Counted from the first letter of the stretch, positions 3,360 to 52,719 are shown. The stretch is 64,000 nt of DNA from a virus (IMGVR_UViG_3300045988_156465), one strand, 5' to 3'. Notes: generated by a model from the sequence alone, not told the origin. Numbers and translations are program-made.

Positions 3360-3376
3360 CTCGTAACCTCCTTTAT

Positions 3377-6353: not shown

Positions 6354-6373
6354 TATTGAAAAGGAGTTTAACC

Positions 6374-12838: not shown

Positions 12839-12980
12839 ATGTGACAGCTGCGGATACTGCGAAAAAGAGCAGGAAGAATGTCCGCACTGCCAAGAGACGC
12901 AATACGAATACTTTTATAGAAGGGATGACGGAGAAATCGTTGGCTGTAGCGAATGTATAGAAAGGATGTGGAGTGATTGA
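12804..12980 (+). CDS. small Cys-rich zinc-ribbon protein (motif shared with 37498..37776)
   Basis: CDSCGYC..CPHCQETQYEYFYRRDDGEIVGCSECIERM. GGAGG lies 8 nt upstream. Confidence 0.55.
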   Translation: MAYPCRTGIKTECDSCGYCEKEQEECPHCQETQYEYFYRRDDGEIVGCSECIERMWSD

Positions 12981-26842: not shown

Positions 26843-27244
26843 TTGGCTTTGCGAGATTTGACAAAGCCAGAATTGCGAAAAATTATAGAGAACGCCAATT
26901 TTACCGAGGATGAGATGATGGTATTTCAACTGTCCAGTAACGGTTCCCCTATTGATTATATAGCGGACACGATGAAAATATCATCATCTACGGTGAATCG
27001 CATTTTGAGGAAGATTTATAAGAAAATAGAAAGGATTGAGGATATGTCGAAACCAGAAGTGCCGATTTGGCAGAAAGTTACAATGACGATTGATGAAGCG
27101 TCCGCCTATAGCAATATCGGAACGGCAACGCTCAGAAAACTTGCGAATAACCCAAGATGCACTTTTGCTCTTACAAACGGGAACAGAAAGCTCATTAAGC
27201 GAAAGGAATTCGACAAGTTTATTGAAAATACTGTTGAGATATAG
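26843..27244 (+). CDS. sigma-70 region-4-like HTH (Tn916 orf7-like) read in frame with an excisionase domain
   Basis: TTG start. N-terminal half FTEDEMMVFQLSSNGSPIDYIADTMKISSSTVNRILRKIYKKI. The C-terminal half is the Xis-like domain (next feature), with no stop between them. Confidence 0.6.
   Translation: MALRDLTKPELRKIIENANFTEDEMMVFQLSSNGSPIDYIADTMKISSSTVNRILRKIYKKIERIEDMSKPEVPIWQKVTMTIDEASAYSNIGTATLRKLANNPRCTFALTNGNRKLIKRKEFDKFIENTVEI
27044..27244 (+). CDS. Tn916-type excisionase (possible internal start)
   Basis: This is the xis candidate. MSKPEVPIWQKVTMTIDEASAYSNIGTATLRKLANNP..NGNRKLIKRKEFDKFIE parallels Tn916 Xis (..IPIWERYTLTIEEASKYF..NGNRIQIKRKQFEKII, from memory). 66 aa, against 67 aa in Tn916. 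Confidence 0.65.
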   Translation: MSKPEVPIWQKVTMTIDEASAYSNIGTATLRKLANNPRCTFALTNGNRKLIKRKEFDKFIENTVEI

Positions 27245-27314
27245 ACAGAAATTAGCCCCGTATGGTAGTATGAAGCTGTATGGGGCTTTTCTCAAAATGA
27301 AAGGGTGTGTAACG

Positions 27315-28442
27315 ATGGGAAAAGACCTTAGAGGTAAAGAATTAGGCGTTGGTATCAGCCAACGGAAAGACGGAATGTATACAGGACGTTTTACAACAAA
27401 ATCTGGAAAACGAAAACAGAAATACTTTCATAAGTTGCAGGAGTGCAGGGCATGGATGGCAGATGCGCAGTTTGAGGATGAACATGGTGATGTGTTCTTT
27501 TCTGACTCTCCAACAGTCGATGCGTGGTTTGACTACTGGATAAATGAAGTAAAGGGAGATAGCATAAGAATTATAACAGAAAGAAACTACAGAAGTATGT
27601 GGAGCTTTTCTATTTCTCCAATTATTGGGAATATGGAATTAAAAGACGTAAAGCCGATTCATTGTCAGAAAGTACTAAATATGATGAATGAAGGGCATAA
27701 GACATCTACCATTAAGGTGCATAGAGATTTAATGTGGAGTGTTTTTGAATGTGCTGTCGAAAATTATTTAATAGAAAGAAATCCTGTAAGAAGGAATGTG
27801 AAAGCAACTGGTGGTAAAAAAACAGAAGCGCGAGAAGCACTAACTGTTGATGAGCAAAAAACTTTCTTAAAAGAATCAGAAAAATCATCATTTTATAATG
27901 GATATGCGTTTGTGCTGCAAACCGGGATTCGGGTTGGAGAATTGATTGCGTTAAAGTGGTCTGATGTAGATTTTAAAAATCGAAAAATAAAAATACAGAG
28001 AAGTGCATCGGAGGTCGCGAAACAAGGGTTTGTAATCGGAGAACCAAAGACAAAAAGCGGGCATCGGGAGATACCGCTTACAAAAGAAGCTGTCAATATT
28101 TTATATAGTCAAAAAGAGAAGAATTCTCAAAACAAAATTATTCCAATCCAGTATGCAGATTATATTTTTCTGAACAAAAACGGAAATCTAATTCAAAAGT
28201 CAGCGTATAATCAAGGAATATATGCTATTTGCAATAGATTGGGAATGAGAAAGTTCTCAATTCACTTGCTAAGGCACACATTCGCTACGAGATGTATAGA
28301 AAGTGGTATGCGCCCTAAAACGCTGCAAGCAATCCTAGGTCATAGCAAAATTGAAATGACGATGAATTTGTATGTTCATGTAACGGATGAATCCAAACTG
28401 GAGGAAATCGAAGCAATAGAAAAAAACTTAAAATTGGTGTAG
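27315..28442 (+). CDS. tyrosine recombinase, Tn916 Int family
   Basis: This is the E1 int gene. The N-terminal arm-binding motif GISQRKDGMYTGRF matches Tn916 GESQRKDGRYLYKY. The catalytic region reads HLLRHTFATRCIESG...LGHSKIEMTMNLYVH. Confidence 0.9.
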   Translation: MGKDLRGKELGVGISQRKDGMYTGRFTTKSGKRKQKYFHKLQECRAWMADAQFEDEHGDVFFSDSPTVDAWFDYWINEVKGDSIRIITERNYRSMWSFSISPIIGNMELKDVKPIHCQKVLNMMNEGHKTSTIKVHRDLMWSVFECAVENYLIERNPVRRNVKATGGKKTEAREALTVDEQKTFLKESEKSSFYNGYAFVLQTGIRVGELIALKWSDVDFKNRKIKIQRSASEVAKQGFVIGEPKTKSGHREIPLTKEAVNILYSQKEKNSQNKIIPIQYADYIFLNKNGNLIQKSAYNQGIYAICNRLGMRKFSIHLLRHTFATRCIESGMRPKTLQAILGHSKIEMTMNLYVHVTDESKLEEIEAIEKNLKLV

Positions 28443-28592: not shown

Positions 28593-29951
28593 ATGAAGGT
28601 TGTAATCGTAGGGGACGGTAAGGTCGGCGGCACTATCGCCAGACAGCTCTCCGGTGAAGGACATGACATCATTGTAATTGATAATAATACAAGTGTTCTG
28701 AATAATGCTTCCAATACGATGGATATTATGAGTGTGGAGGGGAACGGTGCAAGCATGCTTGTCCAGAAAAGAGCAGGTGTGCCTGAGGCAGATTTGCTGA
28801 TTGCGGCAACCTCCGCGGATGAGGTAAATATGCTTGCCTGCCTGCTGGGGAAAAAGCTAGGCGTGCCGCATACGATTGCCCGTGTGCGTAACCCCGAATA
28901 TTATGAGCAGATTAACGAATTGAAGGAAGAGCTTGGGCTGAGCATGACGGTAAACCCCGAATTTGCGGCGGCAACGGAAATCCTGCGTCTTTTGCGCTTC
29001 CCCTCTGCTTTGAAAATCGAGGTGTTTGCGAGAGGGCGTGTGGAACTGGTAGAGGTCAAGATTCCGCCCCACAGTGTGCTGGATGGGATGCCTCTATGGG
29101 CGATTTATAAGGAGTTTCAGGTAAAGGTTCTGATCTGCGCGGTGCAGAGAGCAGGAGAGGTGCATATCCCCAACGGTAACTTTGTATTGCAGGCAGGGGA
29201 TAAAATCAACCTGACCGCATCACATAGTGAGATTGAAAAATTCTTCCGTACCATCGGTCTGTTCCGTACGGGGGTAAAATCGGTCATGATTCTGGGCGGC
29301 GGCAGAATGGCGTATTATCTGGCAAAGGCACTGATTCTTTCTCATGTGCGCGTAAAGATTATCGAACTGGATTATAAGCGTTGTGAATATCTATGTGAGG
29401 CGCTGCCGGAAGCGGTTGTGATTCACGGAGATGGGACGGATAAGGAAACTCTGCAGGAGGAGGGTCTGGAAAAGACGGATGCTCTGGTCTGCCTGACGGG
29501 GATGGATGAGGAAAATATCGTAGTTGCGCTTTATGCCAAGGCGAAAAAGGTTTCCAAGGTGATTGCGAAAATCAACCGTATTTCCTTTGATGAAATTCTG
29601 GATGCGCTGGATATTGATGGCTTTATTTCGCCGAAGATGATTGCGGCAAATAATATTGTCCGTTATGTGCGCGCGATGCAGAATTCCGCAGGGAGCAGTA
29701 ACGTAGAAACGCTGCATAAGCTGGTAAATGAGCAAATTGAAGCATTGGAGTTCAAGGTAAGAGAAAAATCCAGCGTAGTGGGTGTGCCGCTCAAGGATTT
29801 GAAGACGAAAAGCGAGGTTCTGGTGGCAACGATTATCCGCAACGGCAGAGTTATTATTCCGGGCGGTAATGACATGATTGAGGTGGATGACAGCGTGATT
29901 ATTATTACCAGAAATAAGCATTTGACGGACTTGAAGGATATTTTGAAATAA
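28593..29951 (+). CDS. Trk-type K+ uptake regulatory subunit TrkA (two RCK/NAD-binding units)
   Basis: This is trkA. MKVVIVGDGKVGGTIARQL and a second MILGGGRMAYYLAKAL Rossmann motif. 452 aa with AAGGAGG RBS. Confidence 0.9.
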   Translation: MKVVIVGDGKVGGTIARQLSGEGHDIIVIDNNTSVLNNASNTMDIMSVEGNGASMLVQKRAGVPEADLLIAATSADEVNMLACLLGKKLGVPHTIARVRNPEYYEQINELKEELGLSMTVNPEFAAATEILRLLRFPSALKIEVFARGRVELVEVKIPPHSVLDGMPLWAIYKEFQVKVLICAVQRAGEVHIPNGNFVLQAGDKINLTASHSEIEKFFRTIGLFRTGVKSVMILGGGRMAYYLAKALILSHVRVKIIELDYKRCEYLCEALPEAVVIHGDGTDKETLQEEGLEKTDALVCLTGMDEENIVVALYAKAKKVSKVIAKINRISFDEILDALDIDGFISPKMIAANNIVRYVRAMQNSAGSSNVETLHKLVNEQIEALEFKVREKSSVVGVPLKDLKTKSEVLVATIIRNGRVIIPGGNDMIEVDDSVIIITRNKHLTDLKDILK

Positions 29952-29975
29952 TAAATTGAAATTTGGTGAAGGGTT

Positions 29976-31427
29976 ATGAATTTTAATATGATTGCCTATA
30001 TTCTGGGCAATATCATACGAATAGAGGCTGCCCTGCTTGCAGTGCCTGCCTTTGTTTCTATATGGTATCAGGAGGTAAAGGCGGCATCGGCATTTGTCGC
30101 AACCATTATCGCCTGCCTGATGGTAGGGACGGTTCTGGTCAGCCGTGAGCCGGAAAATAAGCGGATTTATGGGCGAGAGGGCTTCGTTGTGGTTGCACTT
30201 TCGTGGATTGTGATGTCCGTTCTGGGGGCACTGCCGTTTTATCTGAGCGGCTCTATTTCGGGCTATGTAAATTGCTTTTTTGAAACGGTATCCGGCTTTA
30301 CCACAACGGGCGCAAGCATTTTGCAGGAGATTGAAACTCTGCCGAAAAGTATTCAGTTCTGGCGTTGCTTTACGCATTGGATTGGCGGTATGGGGATTCT
30401 GGTATTTATGCTTGCAATTATGCCCCTTGGGGACGAGCGCACGATGTATCTGATGAAGGCGGAGGCACCCGGACCTCTGGTTTCCAAGCTGGTGCCAAAG
30501 GTAAAATCGACAGCAAAAATCCTGTATACGATTTATATTGTACTGACACTGGTGGAGATGATTTTGCTGTTTGCAGGTGGAATGCCCTTTTTTGACAGCG
30601 TGGTGCATGCCCTTTCGACAGCGGGGACAGGCGGCTTTTCTGTAAAAAATAGCAGCATTGCGGAATACAATAGTGCGTATTTTGAATATGTCATTACGGC
30701 ATTTATGCTGCTGTTCGGGGTGAACTTCAACCTGTTCTATTTGATGCTGATGAAGGATTTTAAGAATGTGTGGAAAAATGAGGAGCTGCGCTGCTATATC
30801 GCCATTGTCTGCATTGCGACAGCGTTGATTACCATAGATATTTCTCGGTATTATTCGACAGTGGAGGGTGCCTTCCGCCATGCGATTTTTCAGGTGGCGG
30901 CAATTATGAGTACAACGGGTTTCGTAACGGCAAACTTCGACCTCTGGCCTGAGTTTTCCAAGACGCTTCTGTATTGCCTGCTAATTCTTGGGGCATGCGG
31001 CGGTTCAACTGCGGGCGGTATTAAGGTTTCGCGTTTTGTAATCCTTCTGAAAATGATTAGGCGGGAGATCAGCCATATTGTGCACCCGCGCTCTGTTAAC
31101 CTGATTAAACTGGACGGCTATAAGGTGGATGAGGATTCTATTCGCAGCGTGACAGGGTTTATTATTCTGTATGTGCTCATTTTGCTGGGGTCGTTCATGC
31201 TGGTTTCGCTGGATAATTTCGACTTTATTACGAATGTGACTGCGGTTACAACATGCCTGAGTAATGTCGGACCGGGACTTGCTATGGCAGGGCCTGTTGA
31301 AAACCTTTCCTTCTTCTCCGGCTTCGTAAAGATTGTGCTTTGCTTGGATATGCTGCTGGGGAGACTGGAAATTTTCCCGATTATTATGCTTTTCGCTCCA
31401 TCCATCTGGAGAAAGAGCTACATGTAA
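29976..31427 (+). CDS. TrkH/KtrB-family K+ transporter membrane subunit
   Basis: This is trkH. 483 aa and polytopic. Pore-loop-like motifs ETVSGFTTTGAS, STAGTGGFS, MSTTGFVT and CGGSTAGGIKVSR. Confidence 0.9.
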   Translation: MNFNMIAYILGNIIRIEAALLAVPAFVSIWYQEVKAASAFVATIIACLMVGTVLVSREPENKRIYGREGFVVVALSWIVMSVLGALPFYLSGSISGYVNCFFETVSGFTTTGASILQEIETLPKSIQFWRCFTHWIGGMGILVFMLAIMPLGDERTMYLMKAEAPGPLVSKLVPKVKSTAKILYTIYIVLTLVEMILLFAGGMPFFDSVVHALSTAGTGGFSVKNSSIAEYNSAYFEYVITAFMLLFGVNFNLFYLMLMKDFKNVWKNEELRCYIAIVCIATALITIDISRYYSTVEGAFRHAIFQVAAIMSTTGFVTANFDLWPEFSKTLLYCLLILGACGGSTAGGIKVSRFVILLKMIRREISHIVHPRSVNLIKLDGYKVDEDSIRSVTGFIILYVLILLGSFMLVSLDNFDFITNVTAVTTCLSNVGPGLAMAGPVENLSFFSGFVKIVLCLDMLLGRLEIFPIIMLFAPSIWRKSYM

Positions 31428-31933: not shown

Positions 31934-33175
31934 TCATTTGGGTGGCAAGCCATTTACAACGCTTTCAAATAAATCCGCTGCGGTCTGTGCCATTTCGTCT
32001 GTGTGGTGAACGTAGGTATTCATTGTGGTTACAATGTTTTTGTGCCCGAGCCGCTGTTGAACTGCCTTCACGTTGGCACCTGCCTCAATCAGCTTTGTGG
32101 CATGGGTATGACGCAGGCTGTGATAATCAAAATTGATTCCAAGCTCCTGCCGGATGACTCTCTGGCAATAGGCAAAGCTGTTTTTGGTTGTCAGCTCTCC
32201 GTTTTCATCAACGCAGATAAAATTGATTCGCCGCGCGTCTGTGGAAAGGATTTTTTGTGTGCCGACAATTCGCTGTCGAGGCGCTCCTTTTTCGTCCGTA
32301 AAATCGACAAGCTGATATACTGTGTAGAATTCGCCATATTTCAGTTCGTTTTTAAGCTGTCGGTTTTTCTCTGCCTTGAGGATTCGGTAAAGGGATTCCC
32401 CGAATTTTATTTTCCGCTTGGAGTTGTACTTTGGTTCTTTGAGGGAGAACCCCAGATTGCCGTTGATGTTCCTGCGGATAAGCTGACGCTCTACAGACAA
32501 CGTGCAGTTTTCAAAATCAACATCGTCCCATGTGAGGGCAAAGCACTCATTGATACGCAGCCCACAGTTCCAGCCAATCATAAGCGGAATATAGTAGCGA
32601 GAACCAACGGGAAAGCGTTTCCGGATGCGGTCAAATTCTGCATCCGTCAGCACGATGCGCTCTCTGACCGGCTTTGCGACAGTACCTATCTTTACAAACC
32701 GACAGGGATTCTCTCGGATATACTGCAAGGGCTGAACAGCATAATCTATCGCAGTAGAAAGGACAACAAAGATAGAGCGTATGGTCGCTTTGGAATAGCC
32801 CTGCGCCTTTAGCTGGTTTATGTATTCCTGAATGGCTGCCGCCTGTAGGCTTTTTAAATAATACGCACCGAACTGCGGTTTCAGGTGCCTGTGGATCAGC
32901 GTTGCGTAGGTCTGCTGCGTATTTTCTGTGAGATTCATTTTGCAATATTGCTCATACCAGAAATCCAGATAATCACTGACGCTGATGGTGGAAGGCTGAA
33001 AGACTTGTCCGGAGTTTTCATATTCCGCGATAGCCTTTGCCAGAGCCGTTTCCGCTTCCTTTTTGGTACGGAATCCGCCCTTTTCGATTTTCTTTCTTTT
33101 GCCGCCGACCTGAGCGGTATCAAAATAATATGACCATGTTTTACCACGTTTTCGTGTTCCGCCTTTCATAAGCAT
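31934..33175 (-). CDS. tyrosine integrase (phage type, AP2-like N-terminal arm-binding domain)
   Basis: This is the E2 int gene. KRGKTWSYYFDTAQVGGKRKKIEKGGFRTKKEAETALAK, then HSLRHTHATKLIEAGANVKAVQQRLGHKNIVTTMNTYVH. Confidence 0.9.
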   Translation of the reverse strand: MLMKGGTRKRGKTWSYYFDTAQVGGKRKKIEKGGFRTKKEAETALAKAIAEYENSGQVFQPSTISVSDYLDFWYEQYCKMNLTENTQQTYATLIHRHLKPQFGAYYLKSLQAAAIQEYINQLKAQGYSKATIRSIFVVLSTAIDYAVQPLQYIRENPCRFVKIGTVAKPVRERIVLTDAEFDRIRKRFPVGSRYYIPLMIGWNCGLRINECFALTWDDVDFENCTLSVERQLIRRNINGNLGFSLKEPKYNSKRKIKFGESLYRILKAEKNRQLKNELKYGEFYTVYQLVDFTDEKGAPRQRIVGTQKILSTDARRINFICVDENGELTTKNSFAYCQRVIRQELGINFDYHSLRHTHATKLIEAGANVKAVQQRLGHKNIVTTMNTYVHHTDEMAQTAADLFESVVNGLPPK

Positions 33176-34554: not shown

Positions 34555-35010
34555 TTATTTTATACAAAATCCGTAATCACAGAAAATAATTGTTTTTCCC
34601 TTATATGTATAGCTGTGACCGTATCTTTTCTTAAAAATTTCTAAGGCTTCCAGCAAAAATTCTTCGGTTACTTCCAAGTACTCTGCAATTTCAAAAAGAT
34701 TGCTGCAGGGATGTTCAGTTGCCTCAAAGACATCCTCAATGGTAAGTATTTTATCAACGGCCCACTTGCGAGCTTTTATCTCCTGTTTTCTGTTTTCTGT
34801 ATTTTTCTGATTCAGAATATTGCCTACAGTTGTATAATAGTGTCCGATTTCTTCTGCCAGAACGCAGGCTTTTTCTGCATCTGACAGGTCTTTGCGGATG
34901 CCTATCTTTTGCCCCTTGCAAAGTCCTTTTGCGTCAGATTCAAACTGAATTTCTTTTACTTCAAGACCTATCATACTTGCATCATGCAGAAGTTTTTCAT
35001 AATTGCACAT
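34555..35010 (-). CDS. ImmA/IrrE-family metallopeptidase
   Basis: The HExxH motif lies in LAEEIGHYYTT. 151 aa, directly downstream of the XRE repressor as in ImmR/ImmA pairs. Confidence 0.8.
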   Translation of the reverse strand: MCNYEKLLHDASMIGLEVKEIQFESDAKGLCKGQKIGIRKDLSDAEKACVLAEEIGHYYTTVGNILNQKNTENRKQEIKARKWAVDKILTIEDVFEATEHPCSNLFEIAEYLEVTEEFLLEALEIFKKRYGHSYTYKGKTIIFCDYGFCIK

Positions 35011-35028
35011 ATAACAGATCCCTCCCTA

Positions 35029-35817
35029 TTAAAATTTATCCAAATCTCGCTCCATTTTCTCTAACTGGTCGCTGCTCTGGTTGTCATTATGCGCGGCAAC
35101 AGGCATAAGGTAATCCGGTTCCGAGGAAACCCCGAGAATTTTATCAACAGCGGGTTGCATATCAGGTTGATTTCGATATGCCCTAATTACTTTTTGTTCA
35201 TGCTTCGTGTAATCCAAAATGAGAGCTGATGGAGCAAGAGGGATTACATTAGTGTTTGCTGCATCAAGAAGATAATAAGTCTGACCTTCGGGAATCCCGG
35301 TAGATTTTCCGTATTCAGAGACAAGAAGGTCGTAAATATCAGAAGGAAGCTTGTTTTTCCAGAACTTCTGATTTAGCAACATGGAAACAAAGGTAGAGTA
35401 AGAAACATGTCGAATATCAAATTTGCAATTTTCTATGCTTCTGGAATAATACGCTTTAAAAATTTGTTCTGCTGCATTAAGTTTTTGTGGAACGTTGGAC
35501 AGGGAGGAGGAAAGAACTTCATTAGCTGAAGCTTTCATTTCTTCTCTCTCTATGTAATCGTAATAGAATTCAAATTTATCTTCTGTACTGGGCAGACTAA
35601 GAGCGGATAAAATTTCAAAACTAATATCCAAAGCTTTTGCAATTTTTTCTACAGTTTCAGTTGTAACACGAACTTGCTTTCCAGTACGAAAATCCATACC
35701 TTTTTCAATGCTATCAATATGCGTATGACTCAACTCACATTTTTCAGCAAATTTTCTAAGGGAAAGACCTAAAGCATCTCTTTTTCGGTGGATATAATTT
35801 CCCAGAATGTTGTGCAT
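35029..35817 (-). CDS. cI/ImmR-like XRE repressor with long C-terminal domain
   Basis: GGAGGTG lies 7 nt before the ATG at 35817. The HTH is LGLSLRKFAEKCELSHTHIDSIEKG. The longer ORF-track N-terminal extension lacks an RBS. Confidence 0.75.
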   Translation of the reverse strand: MHNILGNYIHRKRDALGLSLRKFAEKCELSHTHIDSIEKGMDFRTGKQVRVTTETVEKIAKALDISFEILSALSLPSTEDKFEFYYDYIEREEMKASANEVLSSSLSNVPQKLNAAEQIFKAYYSRSIENCKFDIRHVSYSTFVSMLLNQKFWKNKLPSDIYDLLVSEYGKSTGIPEGQTYYLLDAANTNVIPLAPSALILDYTKHEQKVIRAYRNQPDMQPAVDKILGVSSEPDYLMPVAAHNDNQSSDQLEKMERDLDKF

Positions 35818-35954
35818 AAAAAACACCTCCGTACACAGATTGTAAATCACGAACAACAAAAAGTAAATAGAAATATACAGGAATTCCTGTTGTTTATGAT
35901 TGACAAAATGAAAAATGTATTGTAATATGAAAACAACAGGAAGGAGGACGATGA

Positions 35955-36167
35955 ATGAATAACAGGCTAAAAGTTTTACGCGCAGAAAAAAATATAACAC
36001 AGGATGAACTGGCAAATTTGTGCGGTATTTCAAGGACTACAGTAAACAGTATTGAAACGGGCAAGGTGATCCCAAACGGAGATACAATGTTGAAATTATC
36101 AAAAGCACTAGGGGAGCCAATTGAAAAAATTTTTTTAGATTTTGCGTTGTGTAAAAACAACAAATAA
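35955..36167 (+). CDS. Cro-like XRE regulator
   Basis: NNRLKVLRAEKNITQDELANLCGISRTTVNSIETGK. Divergent from the repressor. Confidence 0.8.
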   Translation: MNNRLKVLRAEKNITQDELANLCGISRTTVNSIETGKVIPNGDTMLKLSKALGEPIEKIFLDFALCKNNK

Positions 36168-37952: not shown

Positions 37953-38174
37953 ATGCGTGAAACTTTGAAAAAAGCCCGCCAAGCGGCGGGCATGACACAA
38001 CAGCAGGTAGCGGATAAATTAGACATTGGTTTGCGATATTATAAATCTCTGGAAAGCGGCGAAAGGCTCGGAGGAATTGAATTGTGGGATGCCTTAGAAG
38101 ATTTATTCAAAATTCATCAAAGAAAACTCCGTGAGATTTCAGCCACTCATCTCGACCGAGAAGATAATCAATAG
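37953..38174 (+). CDS. XRE-family HTH regulator
   Basis: LKKARQAAGMTQQQVADKLDIGLRYYKSLESGER. Confidence 0.7.
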   Translation: MRETLKKARQAAGMTQQQVADKLDIGLRYYKSLESGERLGGIELWDALEDLFKIHQRKLREISATHLDREDNQ

Positions 38175-38340
38175 AAACATCTAACTTGTCGGCAATTTTG
38201 ATGAGGGCATCAGCGGACGGAAAGCGGTCACCACTTTCATAATTTCTGTAAGCCCTTAATCCCATAGAAAGATAATCTGCCATTTGTTGTGCTGTATATC
38301 CTCTGAATTTGCGAGCAAGATTGAGTCTTTTTGAAAACAA
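38107..38340 (-). CDS. XRE-family HTH regulator (convergent, 68-nt overlap with 37953..38174)
   Basis: RLNLARKFRGYTAQQMADYLSMGLRAYRNYESGDRFPS. Confidence 0.7.
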   Translation of the reverse strand: MFSKRLNLARKFRGYTAQQMADYLSMGLRAYRNYESGDRFPSADALIKIADKLDVSIDYLLGRDEWLKSHGVFFDEF

Positions 38341-38366
38341 AGAAATTCCCCCTTTGAAAAAAATAC

Positions 38367-38417
38367 TTGACAGTGCTCAAATTGTACACTAATATGATTA
38401 TATAGTACAGTGCTCAA
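38367..38417 (+). promoter_or_regulatory. promoter TTGACA-17-TAATAT with duplicated ACAGTGCTCAA operator
   Basis: -35 at 38367-38372 and -10 at 38390-38395. ACAGTGCTCAA at 38370-38380 and 38407-38417. Confidence 0.6.
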
Positions 38418-38444
38418 TATGAACACCACGAAGGAGGAATATAC

Positions 38445-38687
38445 ATGAAAAATGAAATTTTAAAAGTAAGGAATGAGTTTGAAGACCTTATTATGGATGC
38501 AGAAAAACTTTATAGTATTGTGTTCATAAATTGGGATTCATTAGCGAGTGGCACATTTTCTGCAAATAACGAGGTTTATACAAATGCTGCATATGCAATA
38601 GAAGGGCTTATGGCAGATGTCTTAAGAAAGATGAATAATATTCTAAATGAATTGTATGAATCAGGAAAAAACAAAGGAGAAATGTAA
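38445..38687 (+). CDS. hypothetical protein
   Basis: AAGGAGG RBS. 80 aa. Confidence 0.55.
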   Translation: MKNEILKVRNEFEDLIMDAEKLYSIVFINWDSLASGTFSANNEVYTNAAYAIEGLMADVLRKMNNILNELYESGKNKGEM

Positions 38688-39215
38688 ATGGAAGAAATCT
38701 GGAAGCCTGTGGTTGGTTACGAAAAATTTTACGAAGTATCAAATAAGGGAAGAATTAAAAGCCTCCCAAGGATGGTTCACGCAGGACATGGCGTTTATTA
38801 CGAAAAGAAGGGAAGAATTAGAAAACCTGTTTTAAATAAAGGTAATGGATATTATATGCTTTTTCTTGCAGGAAAATTCAATAAAAAATGTGTTTATGTT
38901 CATAGGGTTGTGGCACAAGCTTTTTGCGAGAATCCGAAAAATCTTGAGATAGTTAATCATATCAACGAAGTAAAAACAGATAATAGAGCAGAAAATTTAG
39001 AATGGTGTTCAAAAGAGTACAATAACTCCTTTAACGGAAAAGACCAACGTTCTTGTAAACCAATAATTCAACTTTCTATGGGAGAAGAATACATTGCTAC
39101 ATGGAATGGAGCGAGAGAAGCGGCAAAAAAACTTGGTATTGAATATAAAAATATTTCCGCCGTATGCAGAGGTAAAAGAGATTCTGCTGGCGGTTACAAA
39201 TGGAGGTTTAAATAA
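38688..39215 (+). CDS. HNH homing-type endonuclease (NUMOD4-like N-terminus)
   Basis: EIWKPVVGYEKFYEVSNKGRIKS, VHRVVAQAF...VNHINEVKTDNRAENLEW, and a C-terminal GGYKWRF DNA-binding-like module. Confidence 0.8.
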   Translation: MEEIWKPVVGYEKFYEVSNKGRIKSLPRMVHAGHGVYYEKKGRIRKPVLNKGNGYYMLFLAGKFNKKCVYVHRVVAQAFCENPKNLEIVNHINEVKTDNRAENLEWCSKEYNNSFNGKDQRSCKPIIQLSMGEEYIATWNGAREAAKKLGIEYKNISAVCRGKRDSAGGYKWRFK

Positions 39216-45610: not shown

Positions 45611-46835
45611 TTTAACAAAGCTGATTGCGCCCTCCTTTTACGGGGTGCATCATGACATCAAGGCGGGGCGGCACACGCACTACTGGCTGAAGGGCGGGCG
45701 GGGATCTACGAAATCCTCTTTTATCTCTGTGGAGATTATCTTGGGGATGATGCAGGACACCGCCGCCAATGCGCTTGTTCTGCGGAAGGTGGCGGCCAAC
45801 CTAAAGGACAGCGTGTATGAGCAGCTGCTCTGGGCGATTGAGGCATTGGGTGTAGAGCATTTGTGGAAAGCAAAGCTAAGTCCGTTACAGCTTTCGTACA
45901 TCCCGACAGGACAGAGAATACTCTTTCGTGGGGCGGACGAGCCGAAGAAAATCAAATCTACGAAATTCCGAAAGGGTTATTGCAAATACATCTGGTACGA
46001 GGAGGCGGACGAGTTTGCAGGGATGCAGGAAATCCGCACCATCAATCAATCCCTGATGCGTGGCGGCAGCAGTTTTTTTGTATTTTACAGCTACAACCCA
46101 CCGAAAAGCCAGAGCAACTGGGTAAACCGGGAGTGCTTACAGCCGAAGGCAAACCGCTTGGTGCATACCTCTGATTATCGGCGTGTGCCGCCTGCGTGGT
46201 TGGGGGATGCGTTTTTGCAGGAGGCGGAATATCTAAAGGAGCTGAACGAAAAGGCATATCGACATGAATATCTGGGCGAGGTGGTCGGCAGCGGCGGTGC
46301 GGTATTCGACAACGTAACGGTGGAGGAAATCACCGATGCAGAGATTGCAGCCTTCGACCGTATTTACAACGGCGTGGACTGGGGCTTTTATCCCGACCCT
46401 TGGGCGTTCAATCGGATGCACTACGATTCTGCCAGACGGACGCTCTACATCTTCGGCGAGCTGACAAGGCACAGAACGGGCAATGCGGAAACAGCAAGGC
46501 TCCTGCGGCAATATGGTGTGCAGGATACGGATTTGATTACGGCGGACAGTGCCGAGCCGAAAAGCGTTGCGGACTATCGGAGCTATGGGCTGTTCTGCCG
46601 TGGAGCAGTGAAGGGACCGGGGAGCGTGGACTACAGCATGAAATGGTTACAGGCTTTGGTGCGGATTGTGATTGACCCGGTGCGCTGTCCCGATACGGCG
46701 AAGGAATTTTCCGCCTACGAATATGACAGGAACAAGGCAGGGGAGGTCATCAGCGGCTACCCCGACAGAGACAATCACCATATCGATGCAGTGCGCTATG
46801 GAACAGAACCCATCTGGAAAAGGAGGGGGCAGTAA
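45603..46835 (+). CDS. terminase large subunit (PBSX type)
   Basis: This is the E2 terL gene. YWLKGGRGSTKSSF is Walker A. 410 aa, between terS and the portal gene. Confidence 0.9.
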   Translation: MSDLTKLIAPSFYGVHHDIKAGRHTHYWLKGGRGSTKSSFISVEIILGMMQDTAANALVLRKVAANLKDSVYEQLLWAIEALGVEHLWKAKLSPLQLSYIPTGQRILFRGADEPKKIKSTKFRKGYCKYIWYEEADEFAGMQEIRTINQSLMRGGSSFFVFYSYNPPKSQSNWVNRECLQPKANRLVHTSDYRRVPPAWLGDAFLQEAEYLKELNEKAYRHEYLGEVVGSGGAVFDNVTVEEITDAEIAAFDRIYNGVDWGFYPDPWAFNRMHYDSARRTLYIFGELTRHRTGNAETARLLRQYGVQDTDLITADSAEPKSVADYRSYGLFCRGAVKGPGSVDYSMKWLQALVRIVIDPVRCPDTAKEFSAYEYDRNKAGEVISGYPDRDNHHIDAVRYGTEPIWKRRGQ

Positions 46836-48229
46836 TGCGAAATTTTATCACTTGGGTAAAGGGGGTGTTGCAGATGTTTTTTCAGAGAGAAACGATAAAA
46901 AGGGCAGTCGGTGCAGAGGTGGCAATCAGCGCAGGAATGCAGGATGCCATCACGCTCTGGCAGAAGATGTTCTGCAATGAGCCGCCTTGGTTAGATAAGA
47001 ACACAGAAACGCTTGGGTTAGCCGCTGCGGTTGCGTCGGAGATTGCAAGACTGGTTACTGTGGAATTTCACAGCGAAATCAGCGGCAGTGGCAGACGGGC
47101 GGCATTTTTGCAGGAAGGCTATGCTTTTGTGCTTTCCAGACTGAGAGAGCAGACAGAATTTGCGGCGGCAATGGGCGGCTTGGTATTCAAGCCCTACATG
47201 GACGGCGGCAAAATTGCGATTGATTTTGTTCATGCGGACAGATTTATTCCGACTGCTTACAACAGCCGCGGAGAGGTGACGGGTGCGGTGTTTGTGGAGC
47301 GTGTGAAAAAGGGTTGTGCATGGTACACCAGACTGGAAAGCCATCAGCTGACGGATGCGGGCTATACGGTGCAGAATAAAGCCTTTATCTCCTACCAAGA
47401 AGGAGAATTGGGTGTGCCTGCGGCTCTGACAAGCGTGGATGAATGGGCGGATCTGGAAGAAAGCTTTGTCATGGGTTACCGGAACGGGGACACCTTGGAG
47501 CGTCCGCTTTTTGTATATTTCAAGATGCCCTTTGCGAACCACATTGATGCGGAATCCCCTCTGGGCGTATCGGTCTGCGCAAGAGCGGCAGGGCTGATGG
47601 AGCAGGCGGACAGGCAATACAGCCGTATTCTATGGGAGTTTGAAGGCGCGGAGCTGGCAGTGGATGCATCTGTTGGAGCGTTGCAGGCGGATGGGAAAAG
47701 GCTGCCTGTCGGCAAGCAGAGATTGTTCCGCTCTCTGAATCTGGAAAAGGGGACAACCGGGGATTTATACGAGGTATTCAGCCCTGCAATTCGGGACACT
47801 TCCCTGTTTAACGGCTTGAATCAGCTTTTGCGGCGGATTGAGTTTAACTGCAATCTGTCCTACGGCACCTTATCCGACCCACAGAATCAGGAAAAGACAG
47901 CGGAGGAAATCCGCATGAGCAAGCAGCGCAGCTATGCGGCGGTCTGCAATATCCAGAAGTCCTTACAGGCGGCGTTGGAGCATCTGGTCTGGGTGCTGGA
48001 CTACTACACAAGCCTATATCAGCTTGCGCCCGATGGGAAATACGAGGTTACCTTCAACTGGGGGGACGGCGTGCTGACGGACACAGGCGCAGAATATGCA
48101 CAGATGAAGGCTATGGTGGATGCGAACATCCTCAAGCCCGAAAAGCTGTTGGCGTGGTATTTCGGCATTTCCGAGGAGGAGGCAAAGGACTACATTCCTG
48201 CACAGGATACGCTTGAGTTTGGGGAGTGA
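46835..48229 (+). CDS. portal protein (SPP1 gp6-like)
   Basis: 464 aa. ATGA-type coupling to terL. Called on position and size. Confidence 0.8.
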   Translation: MRNFITWVKGVLQMFFQRETIKRAVGAEVAISAGMQDAITLWQKMFCNEPPWLDKNTETLGLAAAVASEIARLVTVEFHSEISGSGRRAAFLQEGYAFVLSRLREQTEFAAAMGGLVFKPYMDGGKIAIDFVHADRFIPTAYNSRGEVTGAVFVERVKKGCAWYTRLESHQLTDAGYTVQNKAFISYQEGELGVPAALTSVDEWADLEESFVMGYRNGDTLERPLFVYFKMPFANHIDAESPLGVSVCARAAGLMEQADRQYSRILWEFEGAELAVDASVGALQADGKRLPVGKQRLFRSLNLEKGTTGDLYEVFSPAIRDTSLFNGLNQLLRRIEFNCNLSYGTLSDPQNQEKTAEEIRMSKQRSYAAVCNIQKSLQAALEHLVWVLDYYTSLYQLAPDGKYEVTFNWGDGVLTDTGAEYAQMKAMVDANILKPEKLLAWYFGISEEEAKDYIPAQDTLEFGE

Positions 48230-48235
48230 TGAGGG

Positions 48236-49999
48236 ATGCTGAAACCCGAATATTTACAGCGTGTGCCGGATGGCATGATAAAGCTGTACGCACAGGCGGA
48301 GGCGGACATACTGGCGGATATGGCAAGGCGTATCAGCACATACGATTACTGGATTCCTGCGGTGGAGCATCAGGCGAAAATGCTTGAGGAGGCAGGGATG
48401 GTGCGAGAGGAGATTCTGGCAAGGCTGAAAACGCTGACGGGCAGAGCCGACAGGGAGCTGCGGCGGCTCATGCAGGAGGCAGGAGGGGTGGCACTGAAAT
48501 CCGATGATGCGGTTTATCGCAGGCAGGGGCTGCATCCGCCGCCTGTTTCGGCATCTGAGGACTTGCGGAAGATATTGCAGGCAGGATATGAGAAAACAGC
48601 GGGTGCATTTCGCAATCTGACGCTGACAACGGCACGCACCGCCGCGCATCAGTTTGCACAGGCACTTGACCGTGCCTATATGCAGATTACGCTGGGCGGC
48701 ATGGATTACAACACAGCCATCCGAAGTACTATCAAGCAGCTTTCCGCCGAGGGCGTGGGGGCGATCCGATACCCGACAGGGCGGACGGATACCATAGAGG
48801 TGGCAGTCAGACGGGCGGTGGTAACGGGCGTGAACCAAACGGCACTGAAATTGCAGGATGCCAGAGCGGACGAAATGGGAGCTGACCTTGTGGAGGTTTC
48901 CGCTCACGCAGGGGCAAGACCATCCCATGCACAATGGCAGGGCGGCATCTATAGCAGGAGCGGGAAAAGCAGGAAATATCCCGATTTTGTGAAAACCACA
49001 GGCTATGGGACGGGCGCAGGCTTGGGCGGATGGAACTGCTCGCATAGCTTTCGCCCGTGGTTCGAGGGCATGAGCCGCACCTACGATAAGGCGCTGCTGA
49101 AGGAATATCAGGCAAAGGACTATGAGTATAACGGCGTAAAAATGACCGAATACGAGGCGTTGCAGGAGCAGCGGAGGATTGAGCGCAGTATCCGCAGATG
49201 GAAACGGGAAAGGAACGCCATGCAGGCCGCAGGACTGGACAGCAGTGAGGCATCCGCCAAGATAACGGAATGGAACAGAAGGCAGAAGGATTTTCTGGAA
49301 CAGACGGGATTGAAGGCGGATGGGATGAGGGTTGCTGTGGGGAAAGGCAGTGTGTTGGATGCGTTTGCGGAAGAAATCCAAGAAACAAGAATTTACAAAG
49401 AGCTAACTCTGGAAGATTTTAAGGGGTTAAAACATTCCATTACAAAAGAAGAACGTAGAATCATCTATGGGCGCAGCCACTTTAGTGGATATATCAATTC
49501 CAGTAATGCCAGAAAAATAAATATGGCAATCAGAGAAGGGAAGGAATTGGATTCCGAATATCAGAATATCGCAGAAACATTACAGAGTGTAATTAACAAA
49601 AACAAAGTGGATTGTGATATAATGGTCTACAGATACGTTGATGATGATGCTCTGGAATCTATCACAGGCATAAAAGCACCTGTTGCAACATTGAAGATGA
49701 GCAGTGAGGAGTTCTTCGGCAAGGTAAGAGATACTGCGAGGATGATAACGCTCGGGCACGAATATACAGAAAAAGGGTTTTTATCCACAAGCGGTGTTTT
49801 GGATAAAAATGTGATGTCCCGAAAGAACGTCTTTTTGCGAATAAAAGTCAAAAGTGGAACGAATGCGTATATATCAACAAACAATAAAGAAAGCGAAATA
49901 ATATTTGGACGGAATACAAAGTTGAAAATTACAAAAGCAAGCTTAGAAAATGAGGGTGCATATAATTTTAAATATGTACTGGATTGCGAAATGGAGTGA
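48236..49999 (+). CDS. minor head protein (SPP1 gp7/Mu F-like) fused to a C-terminal ADP-ribosyltransferase domain
   Basis: The N-terminal two-thirds include GGWNCSHSF, as in gp7/MuF proteins. The C-terminal approx 200 aa carry VYRYV (R466), FLSTSG (S517-T-S519) and ESE (E552-x-E554), the R-STS-ExE triad. Confidence 0.8.
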   Translation: MLKPEYLQRVPDGMIKLYAQAEADILADMARRISTYDYWIPAVEHQAKMLEEAGMVREEILARLKTLTGRADRELRRLMQEAGGVALKSDDAVYRRQGLHPPPVSASEDLRKILQAGYEKTAGAFRNLTLTTARTAAHQFAQALDRAYMQITLGGMDYNTAIRSTIKQLSAEGVGAIRYPTGRTDTIEVAVRRAVVTGVNQTALKLQDARADEMGADLVEVSAHAGARPSHAQWQGGIYSRSGKSRKYPDFVKTTGYGTGAGLGGWNCSHSFRPWFEGMSRTYDKALLKEYQAKDYEYNGVKMTEYEALQEQRRIERSIRRWKRERNAMQAAGLDSSEASAKITEWNRRQKDFLEQTGLKADGMRVAVGKGSVLDAFAEEIQETRIYKELTLEDFKGLKHSITKEERRIIYGRSHFSGYINSSNARKINMAIREGKELDSEYQNIAETLQSVINKNKVDCDIMVYRYVDDDALESITGIKAPVATLKMSSEEFFGKVRDTARMITLGHEYTEKGFLSTSGVLDKNVMSRKNVFLRIKVKSGTNAYISTNNKESEIIFGRNTKLKITKASLENEGAYNFKYVLDCEME

Positions 50000-50003
50000 T
50001 TCT

Positions 50004-50330
50004 GTGAACAAAGAAAAAAAGGTATTTATCGATAATCTGTGGATGGAATCTGACTTAGGAAAATGGTGTTTGCTGATGTCTGAAGGAAAAACGGAGGACG
50101 CAGACGGTATTGTGCGTGATATTGTAGCATTCACGGGTGCAAAGACCTATATGGGTGCCGTCCGGATGAAGGAAAAAGAGGTTTCCGAAAAAATGATTGC
50201 TGCATTTAAAGATTTGAATGAGTATAAAGAATATATGCTAAGCATAGAGGCAGAAAATGCTGACCTTGTAGGCGTTTTGATAGCGTATGACATTTTTGCG
50301 GATTTAGAAGATACTTTAACTCAAAAATAA
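50004..50330 (+). CDS. hypothetical protein (candidate ART partner/immunity)
   Basis: GTG start 8 nt after GGAG. 108 aa. It lies in an AT-rich cassette. Confidence 0.5.
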   Translation: MNKEKKVFIDNLWMESDLGKWCLLMSEGKTEDADGIVRDIVAFTGAKTYMGAVRMKEKEVSEKMIAAFKDLNEYKEYMLSIEAENADLVGVLIAYDIFADLEDTLTQK

Positions 50331-50379
50331 GGAATGCCGCAGGACGAGGCTCACATCAAAGCATCCGGAAAGTATAATT

Positions 50380-50643
50380 ATGCAAAAGAGGCAGGCGAAT
50401 ACTATGCTAAAATTAAAAAATATAAAAATAAATAATGGAATCATTTCTGCAGAGTATGACCCCGAAAATAGCGGTGTTTTAGGCTCGGTTTCTGTTGATA
50501 TTAAGAGTGGAGAGATAGTAGACAGCAGACTTTCTGAGTATGACAAGGATTTTCCTGTTTACCTCGGTCATGCGGTTGCCTGTTTGGAAAAATTAGCGTT
50601 GCAGGATAGTGTGCCGGAGGAAAAGACGGTCATGTGGTACTGA
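50380..50643 (+). CDS. hypothetical protein
   Basis: ORF in track, with an alternative ATG at 50404 (MLKLKNIKINNGIISAEYDPE...). Confidence 0.5.
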   Translation: MQKRQANTMLKLKNIKINNGIISAEYDPENSGVLGSVSVDIKSGEIVDSRLSEYDKDFPVYLGHAVACLEKLALQDSVPEEKTVMWY

Positions 50644-50773
50644 GTGTTGGACTGGAGGGATGAGTATGTATCATTATACAATATGCAATGTTCCCGATGA
50701 AGAACTGTTTTATAAACAATGCGTGGCATTGGAAAAGAATGTAAGGACTTTATTTTTGAAAGGGTGAAATAAG

Positions 50774-50962
50774 ATGTCCTACGAAGAAGAAAAAAATGCT
50801 TTGAAAGAAGAATTCGATGTGAAATTTGCGGCTCTTGCAAAGGAAGAAGATGCAGCAATGATAAGAGGGCTTGATTCAGAATATGACGTGAAAAGAAAAA
50901 TGATGATGCGAGAAGAAAACAAACGATTGAAAGCATTGAAAGAAAAGTACGGTATCAAGTAA
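50774..50962 (+). CDS. charged coiled-coil hypothetical protein
   Basis: 62-aa ORF with GGGTGA RBS. Confidence 0.45.
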   Translation: MSYEEEKNALKEEFDVKFAALAKEEDAAMIRGLDSEYDVKRKMMMREENKRLKALKEKYGIK

Positions 50963-51073
50963 GCACTTGCCATTTTTGGTAGGTGCTTTTTGATTGCCCG
51001 GAATGGCGAAAAACTATCAAGGCGTGCGGAAAGAACCGTGAGAACAAACTGAAAGCTGAAAGGAGAACGAAGA

Positions 51074-51652
51074 ATGAAAAGAGAGGACATTAAGAAATTT
51101 TTCCCCGATGCCACAGAGGAACAGCTGAAGGGCTTACTGGACATCAACACAGCCGACATCGGCAAGGCAAAGGGAGAGTTTGAAGCAGTGAAGACGGACT
51201 TGGAGAAAGCCAACGGCACCCTCAATGAATACGAAACCACCATTGCAGACCTGAAAAAATCCGCAGAAGGCAACGAGGATTTCAAGAAGAAATTCGAGGA
51301 TTTGGAACAGCGGATTGCGGACGAGAAAGCCGAGGCGGAGAAGAAAGCAAAGGAAGAAGCGGAAGAAGCCGAATATTCCAACCGCTTCAAGACGGTGGTC
51401 GGGGAGCAGAAATGGCGGGACGAGCTGACGGAAAAGGCAGTCTACGCCGAATTTAAAACCGCTTTGCAGGATGAAGCAAACAAGGGCAAGGGGGACAAGG
51501 ATATTCTGGCGGCTCTGACGCAGGACAAGGAATATTTCGCAAAAGACCCTGCAAGAGTGCCTGCCTTCTCCAGAGGGACAGGCTTTGCAGGCGGCGAGGT
51601 GGACGATGCGGCAGTCAGAGCGGCAATGGGCTTATCCCCGAAGAAGGACTAA
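51074..51652 (+). CDS. scaffolding protein
   Basis: 192 aa, Glu/Lys-rich helical protein immediately upstream of the capsid gene. AAAGGAG RBS. Confidence 0.7.
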   Translation: MKREDIKKFFPDATEEQLKGLLDINTADIGKAKGEFEAVKTDLEKANGTLNEYETTIADLKKSAEGNEDFKKKFEDLEQRIADEKAEAEKKAKEEAEEAEYSNRFKTVVGEQKWRDELTEKAVYAEFKTALQDEANKGKGDKDILAALTQDKEYFAKDPARVPAFSRGTGFAGGEVDDAAVRAAMGLSPKKD

Positions 51653-51677
51653 GGAAAATCGAAAGGAGAAATAAAAC

Positions 51678-52571
51678 ATGGCGAACAGCATTACACTTTT
51701 CAAAAAATACATTGACCTGCTGGACGAGGTCTATCAGAATGCGTCCGTTACCTCTGCGCTGGACGGCGATATGACACTGGTGCAGATGGGCGCGAACACA
51801 AACGAAATCGTGATTCCCAAAATCAGCATGGATGGTCTGGCGGATTATGACCGCAACGGCGGCTATGTGCATGGGGATGTGACACTGACGAATGAAACCG
51901 TCAAATTCAATTATGACCGTGGCAGAAAATTTACGGTCGATGCCATGGACAACGAGGAAACCGCAGGGCTTGCCTTCGGGAAGCTGGCGGCGGAATTCAT
52001 CCGCACAAAAGTGGTACCTGAAATGGATGCCTTCCGCTTTGCGACCTACGCAGGCACAACAGGCATTTCCAAGGCAACCGCAGACACACTGGCGGACGGT
52101 GCGGCAGTTCTGGCGGCTCTGGTGGCGGCGCAGAACAAAATGGACGAGGACGAGGTACCGCAGGAAAACAGACATTTGTTTATTACACCTACCCTCTACA
52201 ACATGATTTACGCGGTCGATACCACGAAATCCAAAGAGGTGCTGAATTCCTTTGCATCCATTCAGAAGGTGCCCCAGACCCGTTTCTATACCGCCATTGA
52301 CCTGTATGACGGCAAGACGGACAACAGCGGCGCAAGCGGTGCGAATGAGAAGGTCGGCGGCTTTGTGAAGGCAAGCACAGGCAAGGAAATTAACTTCATG
52401 GTCATTCATAAGCCTGCACTGCTGCAGTATCCCAAGCATACGGTCAACAAGGTTATCTCTCCCGATGCAAATCAGGATAGTGACGGCTGGCTGTTCTTCT
52501 ATAGAGCATACGGTCTGGCGGATGTATACGAAAACAAGGTTGCAGGGATTTATCTGCACCATAAAGCGTAA
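51678..52571 (+). CDS. major capsid protein
   Basis: 297 aa with AAAGGAG RBS, after the scaffold gene. N-terminus MANSITLFKKYIDLLDEVYQ. Confidence 0.75.
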   Translation: MANSITLFKKYIDLLDEVYQNASVTSALDGDMTLVQMGANTNEIVIPKISMDGLADYDRNGGYVHGDVTLTNETVKFNYDRGRKFTVDAMDNEETAGLAFGKLAAEFIRTKVVPEMDAFRFATYAGTTGISKATADTLADGAAVLAALVAAQNKMDEDEVPQENRHLFITPTLYNMIYAVDTTKSKEVLNSFASIQKVPQTRFYTAIDLYDGKTDNSGASGANEKVGGFVKASTGKEINFMVIHKPALLQYPKHTVNKVISPDANQDSDGWLFFYRAYGLADVYENKVAGIYLHHKA

Positions 52572-52584
52572 GGAGGGAAGGCGT

Positions 52585-52719
52585 ATGGCGAAAACAGTAG
52601 GCATGGGCGCAAAACAGCCCGAAACGGCGGAAAACAAGGAAATCGCAAAGCTGAAAAAGGAAAATGCCGCACTGAAAAAGGAGCTTGCGGCTCTGAAGAA
52701 GGAGCAGGAAAAGCAGTAA
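52585..52719 (+). CDS. 44-aa coiled-coil protein
   Basis: AAGGAGGGAAGG RBS. Product MAKTVGMGAKQPETAENKEIAKLKKENAALKKELAALKKEQEKQ. Confidence 0.5.
   Translation: MAKTVGMGAKQPETAENKEIAKLKKENAALKKELAALKKEQEKQ

Follow-up and report, generated by a model that had tools for sequence, protein, structure and literature searches.

MuF polymorphic toxins were defined by Jamet et al. (2017; PMC5576092), who designated the PF06152 domain 'MuF2', reported that 14% of 191 toxins were ADP-ribosyltransferases (ARTs), and proposed, citing the ADP-ribosyltransferases of phage T4, that these proteins are loaded into the phage head and delivered with the DNA. T4-like co-injection was also proposed in a 2023 study of a (p)ppApp hydrolase (PMC10083569). 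Bxa, a MuF-ART of a Bacteroides prophage, is arginine-specific and antibacterial, and is neutralized by two adjacent immunity proteins (PMC11699363). Here, a related locus is described from a window of 64,000 nucleotides (nt), this being the whole stretch of viral DNA analyzed (IMGVR_UViG_3300045988_156465). A single open reading frame (ORF) of 587 residues, called on the plus strand of the window at 48236-49999, encodes what the evidence supports as a portal-adjacent minor head protein of the MuF/gp7 type fused to an ART with an R-S-ExE constellation, and it is followed by an AT-rich block of small genes and gene remnants.

The locus shares with the MuF family a PF06152 N-terminus, a position next to the portal gene, a toxin domain common to other systems, alternative C-terminal tips, a tip-specific ORF of <150 residues directly downstream, and residence in a Firmicutes prophage, and it differs from the family in no defining feature. 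It is clearly a further MuF2-ART example of a described family, to which the stacking of tip and immunity fossils is a modest addition; what goes beyond the family as described is the presence of fossil layers, in which relic 3' ends stand beside retained partner genes, and of a preserved before/after pair. Such stacking of tips and partners at MuF loci was not found in the open-access literature searched, the word 'orphan' is absent from PMC5576092 and PMC12226406, and polyimmunity has been raised only as speculation (PMC11699363). With the Bxa/Bsi/BAH system of a Bacteroides stercoris prophage the locus has in common the MuF-ART fusion, one or more adjacent small genes, a family with alternative tips, and a gut prophage as its setting. 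It differs from that system in phylum, in its ART, which is no more than a distant relative of Bxa (phrog_16625, 'Bxa ADP-ribosyl transferase', E=9e-4), in a 108-residue partner without a detectable family, and in that domain scans found no ADP-ribosylhydrolase gene (ARH/BAH type) here. The features of the locus are listed below, with L numbers denoting related loci.

48236-49348, plus strand: constant MuF2/minor capsid domain, residues 1-371, 57% GC (PF06152)
49349-49999, plus strand: exchangeable tip, residues 372-587 plus stop, a short linker and then the ART domain, 37% GC (PF03496)
50004-50330, plus strand: 108-residue candidate immunity/partner gene of the ART tip, with homologs after the same ART subfamily
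50331-50435, plus strand: relic 1, ~33 terminal codons and the stop from a displaced 523/530-type tip (match to L002 and L016)
50404-50643, plus strand: 79-residue orphan partner of the 523/530-type tip, its start overlapping relic 1 (match to the L002/L003 gene)
50666-50767, plus strand: 33-codon non-gene, a chimeric open frame whose 3' part crosses relic 2 in the wrong frame
50729-50772, plus strand: relic 2, the last 13 codons (GKECKDFIFERVK) plus stop of a third tip, recognized by identity to L019, where that tip is intact
50774-50962, plus strand: 62-residue orphan partner of the L019-type tip (95%-identical gene in L019)
50961-50988, plus strand: terminator-like 12-base-pair hairpin plus T-run, end of the variable region (hairpin scan)
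46835-48229, plus strand: portal protein gene (PF05133 SPP1_portal, E=1.3e-9; phrog_533 portal, E=3e-116)
51074-51652, plus strand: scaffold protein gene, right constant flank (PF06810, E=4e-16; phrog_194)
31934-33175, minus strand: tyrosine integrase, left prophage end (PF00589, E=8e-24, plus an Arm-DNA-binding domain)

The constant part of the protein is assigned by Pfam to PF06152 (Phage_min_cap2, MuF2) over residues 2-355 (E=2e-134, full profile 1-366) and by PHROGs to phrog_581, minor head protein; its GGWNCSHSF motif begins at residue 264 (nt 49025) and is in frame. The portal gene stops 6 nt ahead of the toxin gene, and the order terS-terL-portal-MuF-variable region-scaffold-major capsid is common to all loci compared. 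A further PHROGs label, phrog_595 'head maturation protease' (residues 243-571, E=8e-11), was rejected, as the match spans the MuF end and the ART region and no Pfam protease domain is present; it is probably a misannotation spread from MuF fusion proteins.

The original prediction held that the minor head protein continues without a stop into a domain carrying an R-STS-ExE triad, and this was borne out: PF06152 and PF03496 lie on one 587-residue ORF, and catalytic R466 (in VYRYV, nt 49631-49633), S517-T518-S519 (nt 49784-49792), and E552-S553-E554 (nt 49889-49897) are all in frame. Of the checks and refuting conditions it had named for this domain, those of family, fold, and conservation came out in favor of an ART. 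PF03496 (ADPrib_exo_Tox) was assigned by Pfam to residues 393-572 (E=7e-20; 71.6 bits, the cut-off being 23.4 bits), far above chance level. An AlphaFold2 model of residues 376-587 (predicted local distance difference test score, pLDDT, 88.4; predicted template modeling score, pTM, 0.84) had C3bot1 structures as its top PDB matches in Foldseek (E=1.4e-12; template modeling (TM) score 0.71/0.74, range 0.71-0.75; probability 1.00), with Certhrax, C3larvin, Plx2A, CDTa, Vip2, C2-I, and iota toxin among the further matches. Sequence identity to the C3, C2-I, iota, Vip2, and CDTa structural matches is just 15-25%, and the C3 exoenzymes C3stau2 and C3cer were matched by the C-terminal domain in phmmer. 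A HMMER search of 1.8 billion representative proteins returned 335 relatives of the ART domain, and each catalytic residue is kept in 127-133 of 134 aligned sequences (R466 in 132/134, S517 in 133/134, S519 in 127/134, E552 in 131/134, and E554 in 132/134).

Fusion to a head protein is common among these relatives. MuF1 (PF04233) is carried by 53 of the 85 long relatives of the ART domain and PF06152 by 16, so that one or the other is found in 69/85. Among viral structure matches, the best is a 592-residue 'Minor capsid protein', and some are annotated 'ADP-ribosyltransferase domain and MuF-like fusion protein'. A near-identical protein, P0001, represents a cluster of 369 member sequences.

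The tip shares with C3 and with the C2-I/iota/Vip2/CDTa enzymes the PF03496 family, the R / S-T-S / E-x-E constellation, and the fold. An ExE motif in the ADP-ribosylating turn-turn (ARTT) loop is associated with arginine as the acceptor, as in C2/iota/Vip2-like enzymes, and the QxE of C3 enzymes with asparagine (Rho Asn41). The first position of this motif is E in 131/134 aligned sequences and Q in only 2/134, so the tip falls outside the QxE pattern of the C3 subfamily and is not expected to have C3-type specificity. Because its ARTT loop carries ExE, not QxE, the tip is predicted to modify arginine, not asparagine, though C3 enzymes are its best fold match. It resembles C3 in being a single ART domain but differs in its ExE and in its fusion to a phage head protein, and it differs from the binary toxins in having no binding or translocation partner.

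The tip is one of several that are exchanged on the same carrier. The sample for this comparison was the best 120 homologs among 3771 database hits to the full protein. In these, the first ~371 residues are 88-97% identical and total lengths run from 393 to 592 residues. Clustering of the C-termini separated the ART type (P0001, P0002), a 523/530-residue type (59 proteins), a 501-residue type (27), a 512/514-residue type (27), an Ntox50 type (PF15542, E=3e-32), and one class disrupted by an insertion sequence (IS), P0043 (481 residues), in which an HTH_38/IS30-like sequence replaces the tip. The same N-terminus thus bears at least five tips besides the ART across >100 proteins, switching at residue 371/372. 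A windowed estimate put the divergence point at residues 372-377, and nucleotide homology ends at 49345-49351, that is, at G371/S372. The 523/530-, 501-, 514-, and L019-type tips have no Pfam family (tips without a Pfam match: L016:2683-3159; L004:~6117-6503; L006:~6111-6542; L019:~2900-3496), and these four are probably undescribed toxin domains. The L019-type tip contains a VIHNHPKDG...SRAD stretch and the 501-type tip a GEHAHD motif. At L027:880-4612, an IS66-family transposase separates the MuF1 gene from the ART tip, leaving a free-standing 203-residue ART ORF with a partner gene.

The exchange point coincides with the drop in GC content. GC is 56.7% over 48236-49380, 38.0% over 49381-51073, and ~51% downstream of that, and within the single gene 48236-49999 the GC content at third codon positions (GC3) falls from 0.64 to 0.37. 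In all loci, the variable segments are at 35-47% GC and the constant flanks at 51-57%. The counts behind the original prediction of a sharp drop near 49380 (19/60 in 49381-49440 and 29/60 in 49261-49320) are exact and the drop is real, but the breakpoint of both composition and homology lies ~30 nt further upstream, at nt 49348/49349.

The gene that directly follows the tip, 50004-50330, has a GTG start 4 nt past the ART stop and a GGAG 8 nt upstream of that start. Its product covaries with this ART subfamily in four lineages. In L008, where the cassette region is only ~70% identical to the window at the nucleotide level and the ART domain 74% identical in amino acids, a 47%-identical homolog (125 residues) is the sole gene between the ART and scaffold genes. 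At MuF1-ART loci the next gene is again a homolog of the 108-residue protein, with 28-33% identity in L029 (E=1e-13 to 1e-17), whose ART is 57% identical to that of the window, and with 29% identity in L027 (E=1e-7), whose ART is 50% identical. Since homologs follow the ART in four lineages, 50004-50330 is likely the gene for the immunity protein of the ART tip. Across these lineages the ART domains are 50-74% identical and the partners 28-47%; the partner diverges faster than the enzyme, much as in toxin-immunity pairs. The distant homologs were found by inspecting the genes downstream of distant ART homologs. A word-based homolog search with the 108-residue protein returned near-identical copies only, and degenerate-pattern scans of IMG/VR and metagenomes found copies at 98-100% identity only. 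An alternative start at ATG 49950, giving 126 residues and a 50-nt overlap with the ART gene, had been favored by 18 extra residues that seemed to be conserved in L008. It was rejected and the GTG at 50004 preferred because the L027/L029 homologs and an in-frame Met of L008 begin there; the apparent conservation of the 18 residues arises because they are the conserved ART C-terminus read in another frame.

Downstream of this gene lie the remains of earlier tips. Window positions 50325-50661 are 86% identical in nucleotides to L002 6462-6799, which comprises the last ~110 nt of a 523-residue-type toxin gene and its 79-residue partner gene; the same window segment is 96.7% identical to L016 from 3053 onwards, and the relic 1 peptide, MPQDEAHIKASGKYNYAKEAGEYYAKIKKYKNK followed by a stop, matches the C-terminal end of the 523/530-residue proteins. 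The 79-residue protein is 84% identical in amino acids to the product of the gene after the 523-residue toxin in L002/L003, and its gene is intact in 15/15 loci, with a ratio of nonsynonymous to synonymous polymorphism (pN/pS) of 0.07-0.26. Relic 2 is identical to the 3' end of the 575-residue PF06152 protein of L019, an unrelated phage with a different tip, where a 95%-identical copy of the 62-residue gene begins 2 nt after the stop of that MuF2 protein; the 62-residue gene is intact in 6/6 loci. A 501-type relic with a 74-residue gene is similarly found in L009 and L020-L026, and each of the remaining tip types is accompanied by a small partner gene of its own. The 108-, 79-, 74-, 62-, and 91-residue genes are intact at every locus examined, with pN/pS of 0.06-0.26 where measurable, including comparisons with orphan copies on both sides, which suggests that the retained partner genes of displaced tips stay intact under purifying selection. 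The 79- and 62-residue proteins gave nothing significant in Pfam, NCBIfam, PADLOC, or PHROGs, the 62-residue protein has no match in annotated phages, and the 74-, 91-, and 64-residue partner proteins have no Pfam match.

The AT-rich block is, on these comparisons, read as an ART/108-residue pair plus remnants of two earlier tips, each with a partner gene. The four small ORFs that the original prediction counted before the scaffold gene all exist, but that at 50666-50767 was rejected as a gene because its tail is relic 2 in the wrong frame. The 5' part of this 33-codon frame resembles the 91-residue partner gene weakly (64/5000 shuffles reach the score), and derivation from that gene is a possibility only. 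Likewise, of the horizontally acquired ART-plus-accessory cassette that had been proposed, what held is that the tip was gained by recombination together with ORF 50004-50330, while the remaining ORFs predate the ART; and of the trailing ORFs named as antidote candidates, 50004-50330 covaries with the ART, but 50404-50643 and 50774-50962 are partners of other tips.

This arrangement recalls the orphan cdiA-CT/cdiI and Rhs-CT/immunity arrays of systems for contact-dependent inhibition of growth (CDI) and of Rhs systems, reportedly described by Poole et al. in 2011 (cited in PMC5576092). As in those arrays, N-terminally truncated tips and intact immunity genes are stacked downstream, and full-length versions of the tips occur in relatives. 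The MuF locus differs from them in that the carrier is a phage head protein encoded in a late structural operon, not a secretion-system substrate, and in that its relics are very short (13-33 codons) and unable alone to restore a functional tip.

The related loci form a series in which active and displaced modules can be followed.

Window, L001, L011: active ART with 108-residue gene; older layers, relic 530-type with 79-residue gene and relic L019-type with 62-residue gene
L020, L021, L023-L026: active ART with 108-residue gene; older layers, relic 530-type with 79-residue gene and relic 501-type with 74-residue gene (L022 stops before the last layer of this arrangement)
L016-L018: active 530-type with 79-residue gene; older layer, relic L019-type with 62-residue gene
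L002, L003: active 523-type with 79-residue gene; older layer, 91-residue gene (514-type partner)
L009, L010: active Ntox50 with 64-residue gene; older layer, relic 501-type with 74-residue gene
L004, L005: active 501-type with 74-residue gene; no older layer
L006, L007: active 514-type with 91-residue gene; no older layer
L008: active ART with 125-residue gene; no older layer

The IMG/VR loci L016-L018 preserve the state before the ART arrived. Their identity to the window is 94% over 46835-49348 and 96.7% over 50326-52600. The 977 nt that separate these flanks in the window, comprising the ART tip and the 108-residue gene, correspond in L016-L018 to 370 nt, in which the first ~123 residues of a 530-residue-type tip are encoded. 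Given these flanks, acquisition of the ART was a single replacement with its right end inside the old tip. In L020 (2470-2940) and the equivalent regions of L021, L024, and L025, the 74-residue module is followed by the tail that normally comes after the 91-residue module, its right end matching L002/L006, and this swapped tail suggests a further layer of recombination.

On the right, all related loci become homologous to the window again at 50978-50987. In each terminal module (in the window, L004, L009, and L012), a separate terminator-like hairpin with a T-run directly precedes a conserved pre-scaffold sequence, TT(G/T)(A/T)TTGCCCGGAA(T/C)GGCGA. Within the late structural operon, the hairpin looks like a transcription stop or an element of RNA stability, and it marks the right recombination boundary. 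Promoter and terminator scans showed no enrichment over shuffled sequence (promoter sites, 6 against 5.0 expected), and so offer nothing to suggest that the immunity genes are expressed independently. The best promoter-like site, at 50350-50378 (CTCACA-17-TATAAT, 10/12), falls within relic 1 and precedes the 79-residue gene by 26 nt, in a scan whose site count is not above that of shuffles.

We consider it probable, at roughly three chances in four, that 48236-49999 encodes a MuF-type polymorphic toxin of a temperate siphovirus of Anaerotignum/Lachnospirales gut bacteria, with the 108-residue protein providing immunity and the capsid providing delivery. In the history read from the loci, the ART tip and the 108-residue gene replaced the first ~123 codons of the previous tip, sparing its 3' end and its 79-residue partner; an older layer behind these consists of a third tip's 3' end with the 62-residue partner. 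New tips would be gained by recombination, on the left in the conserved MuF coding sequence and on the right either inside the old cassette or downstream of it. Like SPP1 gp7, the fusion would be incorporated in a few copies where the portal sits in the capsid and would exit together with the DNA, and the enzyme would then act in the newly infected cell, where its ExE motif and the example of the MuF-ART Bxa suggest that it would ADP-ribosylate arginines of bacterial cytoplasmic proteins. In the producing cell, the 108-residue protein would bind and block the ART during late gene expression.

Several points weigh against this interpretation. ExE-type ARTs are also able to target eukaryotic proteins or nucleic acids. 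The role of the 108-residue protein is judged only from position and co-occurrence; it has no Pfam, NCBIfam, or PADLOC family and a marginal PHROG match (E=8e-4), and its single-sequence model, with a pLDDT of 47, was unusable and was kept out of the fold search. The toxin and its immunity candidate both lie in the late operon with no promoter above chance, which makes protection of a newly infected cell or of a lysogen puzzling. Delivery of MuF toxins has itself been called unexplored (PMC10083569).

Killing the cell just entered would bring little gain to a temperate phage, and an injected ART might instead modify RNA polymerase or another host factor without killing, as in takeover of the host by T4 Alt, with the 108-residue protein serving as a chaperone, packaging adaptor, or regulator. 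T4 Alt is a separate protein whose packaging depends on a capsid-targeting sequence and which the prohead protease processes. The proposed logic, in which an ART travels in the capsid and enters the cell along with the DNA, would be the same, and there is distant fold similarity, an Alt-like 'RNA polymerase-ADP-ribosyltransferase' being among the structural matches of the ART tip (rank 38, TMq 0.56); moreover, MuF/gp7-type proteins are portal-associated and exit with the DNA, as established for SPP1 gp7 (cited in PMC10083569). The present ART differs from Alt, however, in being covalently fused to a portal-associated MuF protein, swappable with immunity genes, and encoded by a temperate phage, its packaging being inferred. 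Takeover of this kind appears improbable, as the same N-terminus bears polymorphic-toxin tips such as Ntox50, each with a small partner in the manner of toxin/immunity modules, and the partner diverges faster than the enzyme, as happens in toxin-immunity pairs. In addition, the characterized MuF toxins Bxa and Apk2 are toxic to bacteria and require adjacent immunity proteins (PMC11699363, PMC10083569).

A different target, outside the bacterial cytoplasm, would be reached if the protein were freed on lysis and acted, for example, on animal gut cells, as first reported for Bxa, with no delivery into bacteria. The related loci do come from human gut metagenomes and Anaerotignum/Lachnospiraceae metagenome-assembled genomes (MAGs), the C2/iota/Vip2/CDTa-type ExE ARTs found as structural matches act on eukaryotic actin, and Bxa modifies host-cell proteins (PMC10083569, PMC11699363). 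Nevertheless, the ART domain has no signal peptide or translocation component, a covarying small partner implies toxicity inside the producer, and Bxa proved antibacterial (PMC11699363), so that this explanation seems very improbable as the sole one, although it is compatible with a phage-delivered toxin. Finally, a locus that gathers fragments (two relic toxin ends and the 33-codon non-gene), with relatives disrupted by IS elements (P0043, L027), might be taken for a decayed fusion in which the ART tip is an inactive passenger that recombination has fixed and none of the downstream ORFs has a function. This is scarcely credible in view of catalytic residues that are all intact and nearly invariant, the 369 members of the P0001 cluster, and the small partner genes that are intact wherever examined and have low pN/pS. 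A MuF-type polymorphic toxin with its own immunity gene therefore remains the preferred interpretation of the locus.

The toxin locus is placed by its sequence context in a temperate phage or prophage: host TrkA/TrkH genes lie just upstream of the integrase at 31934-33175, and an M78 peptidase/HTH (helix-turn-helix) repressor pair lies just downstream of it. Close relatives come from Anaerotignum sp. MAGs, a Lachnospiraceae bin, and human gut metagenomes, and more distant ones include Chakrabartyella piscis. INPHARED contained no cultured phage closer than 50% in the MuF domain, and in that database only a match to Streptococcus phage Javan206 reaches into the ART region, with 27% identity.

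The remainder of the window has a composite character. Positions 1-28442, at 36-44% GC, include a tRNA-Gly (232-302), an AAA_15 ATPase (12977-14911), a C5 DNA methylase (22105-23370), and, at their right end, a tyrosine integrase (27090-28442), with only trkA/trkH (28593-31427, 46-48% GC) between there and the prophage; this part is probably a separate integrated mobile element. An earlier view of the left part, at ~40% GC, as host DNA, and of the cassette as host-like in composition, was dropped, since the 1-28.4 kb region has an integrase of its own at its end, and trkA and trkH, which alone are clearly chromosomal, have 46-48% GC. The prophage itself is a GC mosaic, with 35-36% in lysogeny/early regions (35001-36000, 38001-39000) against 50-57% in the structural module (46000-49000). 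The GC content of the structural module exceeds that of the flanking chromosomal genes, and phages infecting hosts of higher GC may be the source of the module.

MuF toxins occur widely among gut prophages, and the purpose they serve is an open question of the field, including whether virions contain and inject them and whether competitors are their targets. The locus described here introduces no new principle but provides a clean natural series: one backbone with at least six interchangeable tips, an ancestral state, and two displaced layers. With this series, one can directly test how specific immunity is, whether orphan genes cross-protect, and whether virions of Clostridia phages deliver an ART. 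It also flags the 108-residue protein as a member of a small, otherwise unannotated candidate family of ART inhibitors, together with several tips without a Pfam family. A tentative and rather doubtful extension is that the orphan partner genes (79 and 62 residues here; 74 and 91 residues in sister phages) are a maintained poly-immunity array against the toxins of superinfecting relatives, with MuF loci evolving by serial tip displacement like CDI/Rhs systems. If this is true, MuF toxins would be weapons in competition of phage against phage or lysogen against lysogen, for which natural before and after genotypes are already at hand.

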